Assembly (NCBI RefSeq): GCF_001677475.2
Contig: NZ_CP015229.1
Reading direction: 5' to 3' (one strand)
DNA from: Escherichia coli
Lineage (GTDB): Bacteria; Pseudomonadota; Gammaproteobacteria; Enterobacterales; Enterobacteriaceae
DNA: 64,000 bases
Under the pieces are notes generated by a model. It was not told where the DNA came from, made no database searches, and saw nothing but the letters and a program-made list of their open reading frames with translations. This document shows, in pieces, positions 1,322 through 7,428 of this stretch (positions within the stretch are counted from its first letter, which is position 1; each line of letters begins with the position of its first letter). The translations under genes and the position numbers were made by a program.

Positions 1322-2077
1322 TCAAGTCGCGCTTGTTACTGCCTTCGCTGTCTTTTTCCTGTAGCTTTCCCCTTTCAGTTCGAACATATATCCGTGATGG
1401 ATCAGCCTGTCTGCCGCAGCCACCGCCATAGTCTCATCCACGAAGATGCTGCCCCACATGCTGAACGGATGGTTACTGGTTATCACCAGGCTCCCACGTT
1501 CATAGCGATGCGCTATTAACTCGAACAGCACACCCGTTTCGGCACTATCGCGTTTGACATAGCCAAGATCATCCACCACTATCACCCGGTAGCGATCCAG
1601 TTTCAGTAGCAGCTCATTCAGTTTCAACTGAGCTCTGGCTTTACGTAGTTCCTGCAACAGCTCTCCTGCGCTGTAGAACCGGGCCCGGTAGCCCTGACCT
1701 ACTACGCCATCCACGATCGCTGCCGCCAGATGGCTTTTCCCCAACCCGCTGGCTCCGAACAGCAGAACGTTTTCTCCTGCATCAACCCAGTCTGTCGTTT
1801 CACAGAGTTGCCGGAACTGAGCTCCATTCAGTTCCGGCACCTGACTGAAGTCGTATTCGCTCAGCGTTTTGGCAACTGGCAACCGGGCCTCCTTTTTATA
1901 ACGACGCAGTTTTTCACTCTCGCGCCACAGGAGTTCTTCATTGCATAGCGTCAGAAGATAGCGCGATGGTGTCCAGCCTTCTGCCAGCGCTCGTTTTTCC
2001 AGAGCGTGCCATTCAGCTCCAACTCGTGTCAGGCGTAGTTTACGCAGGCTATGTTCAAGGTGATGGATATTGCTCAC
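1322..2077 (-). CDS. istB: IstB-like ATP-binding transposition helper protein (IS21 family)
   Basis: 251 aa ORF with Walker A motif GASGLGKSH and Walker B VIVVDDLGY; start overlaps the istA stop. Confidence 0.9.
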   Translation of the reverse strand: MSNIHHLEHSLRKLRLTRVGAEWHALEKRALAEGWTPSRYLLTLCNEELLWRESEKLRRYKKEARLPVAKTLSEYDFSQVPELNGAQFRQLCETTDWVDAGENVLLFGASGLGKSHLAAAIVDGVVGQGYRARFYSAGELLQELRKARAQLKLNELLLKLDRYRVIVVDDLGYVKRDSAETGVLFELIAHRYERGSLVITSNHPFSMWGSIFVDETMAVAAADRLIHHGYMFELKGESYRKKTAKAVTSAT

Positions 2078-3573
2078 TGCGAACCTCCCTTGCCACGCAG
2101 TAGTTGCTCATAACTGCTCAGGTTATGCTGTATCACATTGACTACCGGCAACGCCTTTTCTTTTATACCCAGGAAGCGCATCAGCCGGTGCAGATCCACG
2201 TTTCCCGGGGTATTCAGCATCTGCTCCATACCTTTTGCCACGACTGAGATATCGTCGTATCCTGCAGCCAGTTTCAGGGCATGTACCATCAGCCTTCCTG
2301 CCATATCGGGCTCCAGATGATTACATAAGCGACGCCACAGCCTCCGCCATTCATCGTCCGGCAGGATGTCATTTCTCAGCGTTGCATGGCAGAACGCACC
2401 GGGCTTTTTTGCCAGACTGTCGATCACATGTCGGAAGTCGATACGACGGGCCCGCGTCTTCCCTTTTTCTGGTCTGACGCGAGGGCAGCTCATGACCTCG
2501 CTGCTGCCAACGTAACAGCTCAGACGATCGTCCCATAACCTGACCCGTAACAGTTGACCTACAAGCCGGGAAGGTACGCTGTAGACGACGTGCTTCACAT
2601 TGATGGTACTGCTGCGACTAACCCTCACAGTCAGCTCATCATAGTCAGCACTGCGACGAAGCGGCAGCGGTTTCAGATGAAGACGTTCTTCCTTGACCAG
2701 ATCCTGATTGTTACGGTTGTGCCGCATAACCTGCTGAGTGATGAAGGCCTGATATTCTTCTATGGTGCTGAAGTCGTTACTGCCCCGCAGTATCAGCGCC
2801 TGACAGATACGCCTTTTCAGATGTCCGTGGGCACTTTCAACCGAGCCATTTTCGTGGCCCCGACCGGCATTATTGTGTACGCCCTGCATTCCGTAGTGCT
2901 GACAGAGAGTAGCATAACGCTCAGTCAGCTCGCGGCGTCCATCTTCGCCCTGTTGTTTCCATGCTGCCCTCAGGCTGTCCGTTTTATGTTCTACCGGCAC
3001 TCCGCCCAGTTGTCCGAGGGCTTCCTGCAGGCCTTCAGCCAGAGCAGAGAAGCTCTCACCACCCAGAACAACCCGCATCCAGCTCCAGTGGCTCCATTCC
3101 AGACGGAAGTGATACAACTTATGCGCCAACAACTTACCGGCGATGGTGACAACTACACCTTTCAGTTCAGTAAAGTCCGACAGGCCTCGCAGGCCGGGCT
3201 GATGTTGCTGGCGGAACATGACCTCCTGCTCTGTACCATACTGTAGTTTCCATTCGCGAACCCGCCGTTGCATTGTTCTTCGAAGGCTGTTGGGGTACTG
3301 GCCGGGATATTTATCCTGTAGCATCTCCAGTAGAGTTGTTGGTGTCAGAGCCGGCCTCTCTTTCAACAGAGGAACAAGCATGCTGTCCCACACAGCTTCC
3401 AGAGGATCTTTGCGTGTGCGCCAGTGCCGAACACTGTTTTTTGCCCACTCTCCTTTTTCGATCCGACGACCAGAACGGACTGAGATACCAGCCTTCATGG
3501 CCGAGATATGCTGAGTTATACCTTTCTTACGCTGAGTCATATAGTAACTGACCTGAGAAGTATTGAGCGTCAC
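2074..3573 (-). CDS. istA: IstA transposase (IS21 family), GTG start
   Basis: 499 aa ORF with N-terminal helix-turn-helix-like region and DDE-type integrase-like core; the istA-istB tandem is diagnostic for IS21-family elements. Confidence 0.9.
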   Translation of the reverse strand: MTLNTSQVSYYMTQRKKGITQHISAMKAGISVRSGRRIEKGEWAKNSVRHWRTRKDPLEAVWDSMLVPLLKERPALTPTTLLEMLQDKYPGQYPNSLRRTMQRRVREWKLQYGTEQEVMFRQQHQPGLRGLSDFTELKGVVVTIAGKLLAHKLYHFRLEWSHWSWMRVVLGGESFSALAEGLQEALGQLGGVPVEHKTDSLRAAWKQQGEDGRRELTERYATLCQHYGMQGVHNNAGRGHENGSVESAHGHLKRRICQALILRGSNDFSTIEEYQAFITQQVMRHNRNNQDLVKEERLHLKPLPLRRSADYDELTVRVSRSSTINVKHVVYSVPSRLVGQLLRVRLWDDRLSCYVGSSEVMSCPRVRPEKGKTRARRIDFRHVIDSLAKKPGAFCHATLRNDILPDDEWRRLWRRLCNHLEPDMAGRLMVHALKLAAGYDDISVVAKGMEQMLNTPGNVDLHRLMRFLGIKEKALPVVNVIQHNLSSYEQLLRGKGGSQ

Positions 3574-3617
3574 GCCATTTCCTGTTGGATCATGTAAATG
3601 ACACTCAGGTTACAAAA

Positions 3618-3666
3618 CCGGCCAGAATAATCGGCGCCAGGCGGACTGAGTTATTGTCGTCTCATA
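3618..3666. repeat. Terminal inverted repeat of the IS (istA-proximal end)
   Basis: Reverse complement aligns with 1257..1304. Confidence 0.6.
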
Positions 3667-3673
3667 AACTGGC
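3667..3673. repeat. Target-site duplication, right copy (AACTGGC)
   Basis: Direct repeat of 1250..1256 immediately after the IS end. Confidence 0.7.
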
Positions 3674-5159
3674 TCATGAGTTTAGTCTCGGTATTGCCAT
3701 TGTCGAAGAGCAACTTCAGCAACTGCGCGAACAAGGGCTGGTGATGAATCTGCAACAAGACATCTGGGTGAGCGATGAAGTATTTCGTCGTCTGCGTTTG
3801 CGCTCGCTGCATGCCGCCAGAGAAGCGACGCGTCCCGTTGCGGCCACGACCTATGCGCGATTGCTGCTGGAACGTCAGGGCGTATTACCCGCCACCGATG
3901 GTAGCCCGGCACTCTTTGCCTCAACATCGCCAGGCGTTTATGAGGGCGTGGATGGCGTGATGCGGGTGATCGAACAGCTTGCTGGCGTTGGTTTACCCGC
4001 CTCACTCTGGGAAAGCCAGATCCTGCCTGCCCGCGTACGCGACTATTCGCCAGAAATGCTCGATGAATTACTGGCAACCGGTGCGGTTATCTGGTCGGGG
4101 CAAAAAAAGCTGGGTGAAGATGACGGTCTGGTGGCACTGCATCTACAGGAATATGCCGCAGAATCGTTCACTCCCGCCGAAGCAGATCAGGCGAATCGTT
4201 CGGCGCTGCAGCAAGCGATAATCGCTGTTCTGGCTGACGGAGGAGCCTGGTTTGCACAACAAATCAGCCAACGGATACGCGATAAAATCGGCGAATCGGT
4301 TGATCCCTCGGCTCTGCAAGAGGCGTTATGGGCGCTGGTCTGGCAAGGCGTCATTACCAGCGACATTTGGGCACCGTTACGCGCCCTCACCCGTAGCAGT
4401 TTCAACGCACGCACCTCAACTCGCCGCAGTCACCGGACTCGTCGTGGGCGTCCTGTCTATGCACAACCCGTCTCGCCGCGGGTATTTTACAACACACCAA
4501 ATCTGGCTGGACGCTGGTCGTTATTGCAGGTGGAGCCACTAAACGATACCGAAAGGATGCTGGCGCTGGCGGAAAATATGCTCGACCGCTACGGCATCAT
4601 CAGTCGTCAGGCGGTGATAGCCGAAAATATCCCTGGTGGGTTTCCATCGATGCAAACGCTTTGTCGAAGTATGGAAGACTCCGGGCGAATTATGCGAGGT
4701 CGTTTTGTAGAAGGTCTGGGTGGCGCGCAATTCGCTGAACGTCTGACTATTGACCGATTGCGCGATCTGGCGACACAAGCCACGCAAACGCGCCACTATA
4801 CACCAGTGGCGCTCTCTGCCAACGATCCGGCTAATGCATGGGGAAATCTTCTGCCCTGGCCTGCACATCCGGCAACGCTGATACCAACGCGTCGGGCGGG
4901 TGCGCTGGTGGTCGTTTCTGGCGGCAAATTGTTACTCTATCTGGCGCAAGGTGGCAAAAAAATGCTGGTCTGGCAGGAAAAAGAGGAATTACTCGCTCCA
5001 GAGATTTTCCACGCGCTGACTACCGCACTGCGTCGCGAACCACGGCTGCGCTTTACGCTAACAGAAGTGAATGACCTACCGGTCCGGCAAACGCCGATGT
5101 TTACGCTGCTGCGTGAGGCGGGATTTTCAAGTTCGCCACAAGGGCTGGATTGGGGATAG
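3667..5159 (+). pseudogene. lhr: lhr, 3' segment (C-terminal roughly 497 codons) downstream of the IS insertion
   Basis: In-frame continuation of Lhr; the track ORF 3585..5159 begins at a TTG inside the IS end, so there is no native start codon. Confidence 0.8.
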
Positions 5160-5209: not shown

Positions 5210-5557
5210 TTATTCAGCGTCCGGCTCTTCAGACTTGTATTTAGCGGCAGTTTCTTTGATCAGCTGCTGCAGTTCGCCACGCTGATACATTTCGATCACG
5301 ATATCACAACCGCCGACCAGCTCGCCGTCAACCCACAGTTGCGGGAAGGTCGGCCAGTTAGCATATTTCGGCAGTTCCGCACGAATGTCCGGATTCTGCA
5401 GGATATCAACATAGGCAAAACGTTCGCCACATGCGGCAAGCGCCTGGACTGCCTGGGCAGAGAAACCGCAGCTCGGCAGTTTCGGTGAACCTTTCATGTA
5501 CAGCAGGATCGGGTTTTCAGCAATCTGGCGTTGGATTTTTTCGATAGTGGTGCTCAT
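5210..5557 (-). CDS. grxD: Monothiol glutaredoxin Grx4
   Basis: 115 aa with CGFS active-site motif (PSCGFS); GAGGAA ribosome-binding site upstream. Confidence 0.95.
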   Translation of the reverse strand: MSTTIEKIQRQIAENPILLYMKGSPKLPSCGFSAQAVQALAACGERFAYVDILQNPDIRAELPKYANWPTFPQLWVDGELVGGCDIVIEMYQRGELQQLIKETAAKYKSEEPDAE

Positions 5558-5891
5558 TGTCTTGCTTCCTCAAACTTCTTTACGGCAGTAATCTGACATT
5601 GTAGCGGGTCAGTGCGGCATCGGGAAATAACATTTTCATCACGCTTTTGCTATTTTATCCCTTTGCTCTAATTGTTGCATTTCAAATATTCGTTTCTTCC
5701 CTGACGCAAGGCAAACTGGCGTATTTATGACCATTTTTAGCTTTCACTGCTGCATTTTTTTGCGCTCGCCGACGAAACGTATTTTTTAACAATAAAAGCT
5801 ATTAACTTTCTCTTCTTCTATGCATTAGAATTATCAAGTTTTGTAAATCAGACGCAGGCATGATAGACCTGCCTTAACAGAGGGACGCTCA

Positions 5892-6719
5892 GTGGCGCGG
5901 ATAAACCGTATTTCGATCACGCTCTGTGCTTTACTTTTTACCACCCTGCCTTTAACGCCTATGGCCCATGCTTCAAAGCAAGCCAGGGAGAGTTCTGCTA
6001 CTACTCATATCACCAAAAAAGCAGATAAAAAGAAAAGCACGGCAACCACCAAAAAGACCCAGAAAGCCAGCCAGAAAACAGCGAAAAAAGCCGCCAGTAA
6101 AAGTACGATCAAAAGCAAAACCGCTTCTTCCGTTAAAAAATCTTCCATTACCGCTTCTAAAAACGCCAAAACTCGCAGCAAACACGCCGTCAATAAAACG
6201 GCCTCAGCCAACTTTACCGAAAAGTGTACCAAACGTAAGGGCTATAAATCGCATTGTGTGAAAGTCAAAAATGCCGCGTCAGGAACCCTTGCCGACGCGC
6301 ACAAAGCGAAGGTGCAAAAAGCCACGAAAGTGGCAATGAATAAACTGATGCAGCAAATTGGTAAGCCATATCGTTGGGGCGGCAGCTCACCGCGTACCGG
6401 TTTTGATTGCAGCGGCCTGGTTTATTACGCTTATAAAGATTTGGTGAAAATTCGTATTCCGCGTACGGCGAATGAAATGTATCACCTGCGAGATGCAGCG
6501 CCAATCGAACGTAGTGAACTGAAAAACGGCGACCTGGTCTTTTTCCGTACTCAGGGACGCGGTACAGCCGATCATGTCGGCGTATATGTCGGCAACGGCA
6601 AATTTATTCAGTCACCGCGTACGGGTCAGGAAATTCAAATCACTTCTCTCAGTGAAGACTACTGGCAGCGCCACTATGTTGGCGCTCGCCGGGTAATGAC
6701 CCCAAAAACACTTCGCTAA
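5892..6719 (+). CDS. mepH: NlpC/P60-family peptidoglycan DD-endopeptidase MepH (YdhO); GTG start, start position uncertain
   Basis: Signal peptide, Lys/Ala/Ser/Thr-rich low-complexity linker, C-terminal NlpC/P60 domain (DCSGLV ... H). Confidence 0.9.
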   Translation: MARINRISITLCALLFTTLPLTPMAHASKQARESSATTHITKKADKKKSTATTKKTQKASQKTAKKAASKSTIKSKTASSVKKSSITASKNAKTRSKHAVNKTASANFTEKCTKRKGYKSHCVKVKNAASGTLADAHKAKVQKATKVAMNKLMQQIGKPYRWGGSSPRTGFDCSGLVYYAYKDLVKIRIPRTANEMYHLRDAAPIERSELKNGDLVFFRTQGRGTADHVGVYVGNGKFIQSPRTGQEIQITSLSEDYWQRHYVGARRVMTPKTLR

Positions 6720-6846
6720 AACTTTACCCTGTTGTTACGGCAACAGGGTAAGTTCATCTTTTGTCTCACCTTTTAATTTGCTACCCTATCCATACGCACA
6801 ATAAGGCTATTGTACGTATGCAAATTAATAATAAAGGAGAGTAGCA

Positions 6847-7428
6847 ATGTCATTCGAATTACCTGCACTACCATATGCTAAAGATGCTCTGGCACCGCAC
6901 ATTTCTGCAGAAACCATCGAGTATCACTACGGCAAGCATCATCAGACTTATGTCACTAACCTGAACAACCTGATCAAAGGTACCGCGTTTGAAGGTAAAT
7001 CACTGGAAGAGATTATTCGCAGCTCTGAAGGTGGCGTATTCAACAACGCAGCTCAGGTCTGGAACCATACTTTCTACTGGAACTGCCTGGCACCGAACGC
7101 CGGTGGCGAACCGACTGGAAAAGTCGCTGAAGCTATCGCCGCATCTTTTGGCAGCTTTGCCGATTTCAAAGCTCAGTTTACTGATGCAGCGATCAAAAAC
7201 TTTGGTTCTGGCTGGACCTGGCTGGTGAAAAACAGCGATGGCAAACTGGCTATCGTTTCAACCTCTAACGCGGGTACTCCACTGACCACCGATGCGACTC
7301 CGCTGCTGACCGTTGATGTCTGGGAACACGCTTATTACATCGACTATCGCAATGCACGTCCTGGCTATCTGGAGCACTTCTGGGCTCTGGTGAACTGGGA
7401 GTTCGTAGCGAAAAATCTCGCTGCATAA
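6847..7428 (+). CDS. sodB: Iron superoxide dismutase
   Basis: 193 aa Fe/Mn SOD family; strong ribosome-binding site AGGAGAG upstream. Confidence 0.97.

Follow-up and report, generated by a model that had tools for sequence, protein, structure and literature searches.

A predicted disordered, polycationic N-terminal tail in Escherichia coli MepH with compositional open reading frames and a 12-nt in-frame length dimorphism

The peptidoglycan endopeptidase gene mepH (ydhO) lies in a 64,000-nt stretch of Escherichia coli DNA (contig NZ_CP015229.1), here called the window, and raises two questions: why its 5' part is overlapped by three long open reading frames (ORFs) in other frames, and why its product is longer than that of K-12. 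An earlier note on this DNA had described a Lys/Ala/Ser/Thr-rich low-complexity linker in the N-terminal third of MepH, encoded by A-rich repetitive codons, which gives rise to the ORFs and is prone to in-frame length variation, and had set the 275 codons of the gene against 271 for K-12. The nature of this segment, the status of the ORFs, and the direction, frequency and number of origins of the length change are considered below.

5892..6719, plus strand: mepH (ydhO) coding sequence, long allele, 275 codons plus stop, GTG start

In the window, mepH is flanked by grxD (5210..5557, minus strand) and sodB (6847..7428, plus strand), and the order grxD-mepH-sodB is the same in K-12 and in all E. 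coli loci fetched. The gene is 100% identical to the mepH annotated by RefSeq in FDAARGOS_497 and TUM12368, and its protein allele is identical to WP_000101179.1 and hence already in RefSeq. Of 5,426 complete E. coli genomes, 5,425 gave a match to mepH and one gave none at all; in another record (H60; NZ_CP128950.1, strain TUM2805), mepH is reduced to its last 116 nt beside grxD.

The mepH gene of K-12 MG1655 is 816 nt long, i.e. 271 codons, in agreement with the earlier note. The MepH protein of the window shares ~99% identity with that of K-12 and is its orthologue. K-12 MepH (WP_000101193.1, 271 aa) has the same signal peptide and hairpin (see below) and an identical catalytic domain; compared with it, the window allele has an additional QKAS after residue 56, I73 in place of T and N107 in place of S. 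All amino-acid differences among six E. coli MepH alleles fall within residues 54-129. K-12 MepH is a DD-endopeptidase that cleaves 4-3 peptidoglycan cross-links and is one of three redundantly essential endopeptidases, together with MepS and MepM (PMC11211486). It is degraded through Prc/NlpI (PMC8996183). As judged by orthology, the window MepH would likewise be a periplasmic peptidoglycan DD-endopeptidase, a function carried over from the K-12 protein.

Upstream of grxD, the lhr helicase gene, the 3' part of which ends at 5159, appears to be interrupted at 1322..3677 by an IS21-like element. Two minus-strand ORFs, 2074..3573 and 1322..2077, lie inside lhr, with the RefSeq match 'istA: IS21-like element ISEc10 family transposase', and the neighbouring ORF of 251 aa is probably istB. 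Positions 3300-3900 were not covered to at least 80% by any complete E. coli genome; hence, the insertion junction was not seen in that collection, even though mepH is identical to that of two genomes within it. In five loci (L090, L095, L096, L102 and L103), lhr is almost entirely deleted (~1040-1268 of each locus), which leaves the order gloA-rnt, two small pseudogene remnants and grxD; the mepH allele is long in some of these loci and short in others.

The MepH protein was divided into four parts.

5892..5972, plus strand: predicted Sec signal peptide, residues 1-27 (MARINRISITLCALLFTTLPLTPMAHA, cut before the S of SKQ), read from the sequence
5973..6212, plus strand: polycationic Lys/Ser/Thr/Ala-rich N-terminal tail, residues 28-107, disordered as predicted from AlphaFold2 pLDDT and composition
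6213..6269, plus strand: predicted two-cysteine beta-hairpin, residues 108-126, with C112 at 6225..6227 and C122 at 6255..6257
6288..6716, plus strand: long helix (residues 133-154) and NlpC/P60 catalytic domain, from Pfam, PDB relatives and the AlphaFold2 fold from about residue 157

To compare species, one genome of each was scanned, which gave 80 loci; one of these (L065) is frameshifted and was left out. The 79 other Enterobacteriaceae representatives retained were aligned with two E. coli alleles, giving an alignment of 81 sequences. The omitted locus, from Citrobacter amalonaticus AUH_CA_2023_1 (match 1501-2332), has 832 nt, a length not divisible by three, and gives a translation of only 57 aa; the frameshift may be genuine or may stem from a homopolymer error in the A-rich tail.

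The putative signal peptide, as read by eye, has a hydrophobic core followed by A-H-A and lacks a lipobox cysteine, and the corresponding segment is 26-27 aa long in all 81 sequences. MepH is thus probably a Sec-dependent periplasmic protein cleaved at AHA/S. Once the putative signal peptide is removed, the segment that follows is an N-terminal tail and not a linker between two domains, and in this respect the earlier description is to be corrected. Nor is the segment of low complexity throughout, its C-terminal end (residues 108-126) being a conserved two-cysteine hairpin. The peptide quoted from the linker, KKADKKKSTATTKKTQKASQKTAKKAASKSTIKSKTASS, was found at residues 42-80 of the 275-codon ORF.

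In an AlphaFold2 model built with 80 orthologue sequences, which is weak overall (mean pLDDT 57.9), residues 16-108 have pLDDT <50 and no secondary structure. The region of residues 28-135, which includes the hairpin, contains 25% K, 16% S, 15% T and 16% A and has a net charge of +26; K, R, S, T and A together make up 60-77% of the tail region across all species compared. No PDB relative covers the tail, the PDB matches starting at ~136. The low pLDDT, biased composition and indel-rich evolution (see below) agree in predicting that the MepH tail is intrinsically disordered.

The hairpin is marked by the motif KC..RKG.K..C (C-x9-C), both cysteines of which, C112 and C122, are invariant in the 80 orthologue sequences. 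The predicted strands span residues 108-113 and 121-126, with a block-mean pLDDT of about 58-68. This part of the protein contains two cysteines in 77 of the 81 sequences and four in the other four; in the two four-cysteine orthologues inspected, from Klebsiella grimontii and Enterobacter sp. JUb54 (L059 and L078), the hairpin motif is duplicated. No function for the KC..RKG.K..C hairpin was described in the literature searched on MepH.

The NlpC/P60 domain (Pfam PF00877, peptidase family C40) occupies residues 157-267 (6360..6692) and was matched over profile positions 1-105 of 105 with E = 8e-37 and a score of 125.9 bits (cut-off 23). Related structures in the PDB, MepS/Spr among them, match residues ~136-270 only. 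C173, in the motif D-C-S-G-L, and H228 are invariant in the 80 orthologue sequences and, as is general for the family, are taken to be the catalytic Cys and His.

Between species, the catalytic part is always 140 aa long in the 81 sequences, with 0 gapped columns and 88% mean identity to the window. The tail (residues 28-135), in contrast, varies from 85 to 126 aa with 26 different lengths; 88 of 150 alignment columns are gapped, and mean identity to the window is 40%. The net charge of the tail nevertheless stays between +21 and +27 in all 81 sequences. Constraint on the tail, as far as the alignment indicates, falls on charge and the hairpin and not on length or sequence.

Three ORFs in other frames lie across the tail, each at the coordinates given in the earlier note.

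5968..6261, plus strand: other-frame ORF, 97 codons, compositional by-product
5973..6185, minus strand: antisense ORF, 70 codons, compositional by-product
6005..6232, minus strand: antisense ORF, 75 codons, compositional by-product

The region 5990-6260 consists of 41% A, 27% C, 16% G and 16% T, as compared with about 25% of each base in the 64-kb window, and AAA accounts for 18 of the 80 tail codons. The codons are therefore A-rich as claimed. They were also said to be repetitive, which holds for the composition but not for repeats: Tandem Repeats Finder reported no array in 5850-6750 at a minimum score of 30, a repeat search of the region gave only one weak 15-nt pair, and the three short in-frame direct repeats observed in the tail do not differ significantly from the 1.5 expected from codon shuffles (p=0.2).

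Because Lys, Ser, Thr and Ala codons dominate the tail, A and C are abundant and T is scarce on its coding strand. Any stop codon, read directly or as its reverse complement, requires a T on the plus strand, and several other frames, sense and antisense, therefore stay open by chance. When the order of the linker codons was permuted 2,000 times with the gene context kept, the mean lengths of the open runs were 107, 78 and 107 codons, as compared with 101, 76 and 78 codons observed (p = 0.63, 0.50 and 0.80, respectively), and the explanation offered in the earlier note thus holds for all three ORFs. With an insert of average genomic composition, at least four long alternate frames were found in only about 5% of trials. 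A 112-codon antisense frame free of stops (6265..6603, minus strand) across the NlpC/P60 domain exceeds any of the flagged linker ORFs; hence, long antisense frames also occur in this gene outside the A-rich tail.

That one or more of the three ORFs is a real overlapping gene is suggested by their length of 70-97 codons and their location inside an expressed gene. However, shuffled codon orders yield open frames that are as long or longer, and a Pfam search of the three products at E up to 1 found no family. The tail beneath the ORFs is poorly conserved (40% mean identity) and rich in indels between species, and many of the interspecies tail lengths shift the register locally relative to the window, so that an overlapping frame could not be preserved across species. 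Within E. coli, a 12-nt indel (see below) changes all three products. An overlapping gene is accordingly very improbable; the three ORFs are by-products of composition and not genes, and should not be taken as genes by ORF callers.

The difference in length between the window and K-12 proteins was traced to a single block by DNA and protein alignments.

6059..6070, plus strand: 12-nt in-frame indel (CCAGAAAGCCAG = QKAS), present in the window and absent in K-12
6059..6065, plus strand: direct repeat copy 1, CCAGAAA, forming a perfect pair with copy 2
6071..6077, plus strand: direct repeat copy 2, CCAGAAA, 12 nt downstream of copy 1

Owing to the repeat, the placement of the indel is ambiguous by up to 7 nt. 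The two alleles were counted using junction-specific queries, built so that the opposite allele cannot seed a match (28-nt seed). Among the 5,426 complete E. coli genomes, the long junction was found in 1,846 and the short K-12 junction in 3,526; the 271-aa form thus occurs in about 65% and the 275-aa form in about 34%. Another 53 genomes matched neither query. In at least some of these, a SNP has probably disrupted the 28-nt seed, as in the TTNKTQKT allele P0009, and rare further mepH alleles are possible among them. One long-type junction was located on a plasmid record, and one genome carries two short-type copies.

Only the lengths 828 nt and 816 nt were present among 59 full-length E. coli matches in an evenly spaced sample, and the 15 members listed of a 2,994-member protein cluster are all 271 or 275 aa long. 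A 241-nt query over 5990-6230 matched 5,424 genomes, in every case with at least 90% identity, and hence large additional indels are absent from this region in them. The E. coli MepH tail is therefore a dimorphism with two lengths in the sampled alleles, and not a length series. With two 7-nt copies, two alleles seen and no array, the site does not belong to the tandem-repeat or microsatellite contingency loci. The proneness to in-frame length variation ascribed to the linker in the earlier note was thus borne out by the 12-nt indel in E. coli and by the 26 tail lengths across species; an invariant linker length, which the note held would count against it, was found neither across strains nor across species.

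The tail contains six A-runs of 5-6 nt, which are error-prone in long-read assemblies, and mepH is frameshifted in the Citrobacter record described above. A sequencing, assembly or start-codon annotation artefact was therefore considered as a source of the 275 versus 271 difference. The difference is, however, a clean 12-nt block and not a change in homopolymer length, both alleles use the same GTG start, and each is present in thousands of independent complete genomes. On the alignments and junction counts this reading was ruled out, and its probability is practically negligible.

The direction of the change is indicated by the related species. E. albertii, E. whittamii and a divergent Escherichia representative have xKASQK, i.e. 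the long form, and carry CAATAAA (Asn57) where E. coli has repeat copy 1. These species thus have the long form but lack the repeat, and by this comparison the long form is ancestral and the short K-12 form a derived deletion. A change of Asn57 to Gln in E. coli created the perfect CCAGAAA pair, and slipped-strand mispairing of the heptamers in the course of replication most likely then removed the 12 nt. The loss of DNA between short direct repeats through replication slippage is a general mechanism. The end-points of the deletion lie in the perfect 7-nt repeat, the deleted length equals the repeat spacing of 12 nt, and the product retains one copy. The loss of one repeat unit plus spacer is what slippage would give, and we infer this mechanism from the sequence at the junction. 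The long allele of E. coli O111:H8 (L092) has CAA in place of CAG at codon 57 (equivalent to window position 6062), which breaks the perfect 7-nt repeat; deletion should thus be less likely in this allele.

Whether the deletion occurred once or several times was examined using 18 E. coli loci with 2-kb flanks, aligned with the window and other Escherichia species. In this sample of 19 genomes, picked from a similarity ranking, the short allele is found on three local haplotype families, those of K-12/O104:H4, O157:H7 and EC100/bat A3. The K-12/O104:H4 background has a long counterpart, O111:H8, that is identical at every informative site of mepH, and the O157:H7 background has one, 23CRST011, that is identical up to about 6491. 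For the EC100/bat A3 (B2-like) short haplotype, no exact long counterpart was found in 5,424 genomes, the best matches being 99.2% identical. In the four-gamete test, the indel was incompatible with 10 of the 12 informative SNPs within 300 nt (0.83). The median incompatibility of SNPs was 0.09-0.17, and the value of the indel was reached by none of 102 SNPs, or of the 29 at comparable frequency. In local neighbour-joining trees, the indel required 3-4 steps, as compared with a mean of 1.7-2.2 and a maximum of 4-5 for SNPs.

These data can be read in two ways. On balance, the 12-nt deletion has probably arisen more than once by recurrent slippage at the repeat. A single early deletion in E. coli, spread across haplotypes by homologous recombination with both alleles possibly under selection, is a possible though somewhat doubtful alternative, under which the site would not be mutationally unstable. 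E. coli recombines often, and the tracts needed are short but feasible (under ~480 bp for the O157 type and under ~185 bp for the EC100 type). A single origin also agrees with the EC100-type short haplotype having no exact long counterpart, and with the rarity of short derivatives on one common long background. Roughly 980 genomes are one mismatch from the long-junction query, mostly, by the sampled alleles, owing to C6051, which lies 8 nt from the indel, and almost no short derivatives of them were seen. With at most nine possible short derivatives of this common C6051 haplotype, the deletion rate cannot be high. On the other hand, neighbouring SNPs that share the recombination history of the indel are far less incompatible (median 0.09-0.17 vs 0.83), and the 7-nt direct repeat lies exactly at the deletion end-points, as slippage predicts. 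Recurrent slippage is somewhat the more probable of the two.

The explanation as a whole, comprising the anatomy of the tail, the compositional origin of the ORFs, a derived deletion most likely due to slippage and its probable recurrence, is considered highly probable. Both alleles are frequent, as would be expected if the precise length of the tail were of little importance while its charge and hairpin are kept, and the indel may be near-neutral. Apart from the minor corrections noted above, the earlier observation is confirmed and its interpretation supported; what it describes is an ordinary property of a known gene. The finding is of little consequence. Its modest additions are the direction of the indel, the allele frequencies, the E. 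coli-specific repeat, the likely recurrence and the conserved C-x9-C hairpin. On a small scale, the indel also illustrates clearly how a substitution confined to one lineage (Asn57 to Gln) created a direct repeat and so opened the way to a deletion. The reference K-12 MepH (271 aa) is a derived allele with a four-residue deletion, and for work on the recognition of MepH by NlpI/Prc, the conserved features to consider are the charge (+21 to +27) and the C-x9-C hairpin rather than length or sequence.

The literature searched on MepH deals with its degradation through Prc/NlpI and with the disordered N-terminus of MepS, and none of it addresses the MepH tail. The tail and the two-cysteine hairpin might together form a functional module, which would either be recognised by NlpI/Prc, by analogy with the N-terminus of MepS, or tether MepH electrostatically to peptidoglycan or to the outer membrane; this reading is unlikely. 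Were it true, selection would have acted on the recurrent QKAS deletion as a means of adjusting the stability or reach of MepH, and studies based on K-12 would describe only the derived short allele.

Compared with slippage deletions in general, the deletion in mepH is alike in having its end-points in a repeat, a length equal to the repeat spacing and one copy kept. It is unlike the phase-variable contingency loci, as the mepH site has no tandem array or microsatellite and was seen in two states. The closest protein for comparison is MepS (Spr), the E. coli paralogue, which has the NlpC/P60 domain in common with MepH; the structures PDB 2k1g, 8xud and 7v6s align to MepH residues ~149-270. The intrinsically disordered N-terminal segment of MepS becomes folded when it binds the adaptor NlpI (PMC11211486). 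Both proteins thus have a disordered segment at the N-terminus, that of MepH being predicted. However, the tail of MepS, which is a lipoprotein, is short, residues 2-36 being those taken off in the published truncation, whereas MepH has no lipobox, and its tail is about 80 residues long with a charge near +26 and is followed by the two-cysteine hairpin.
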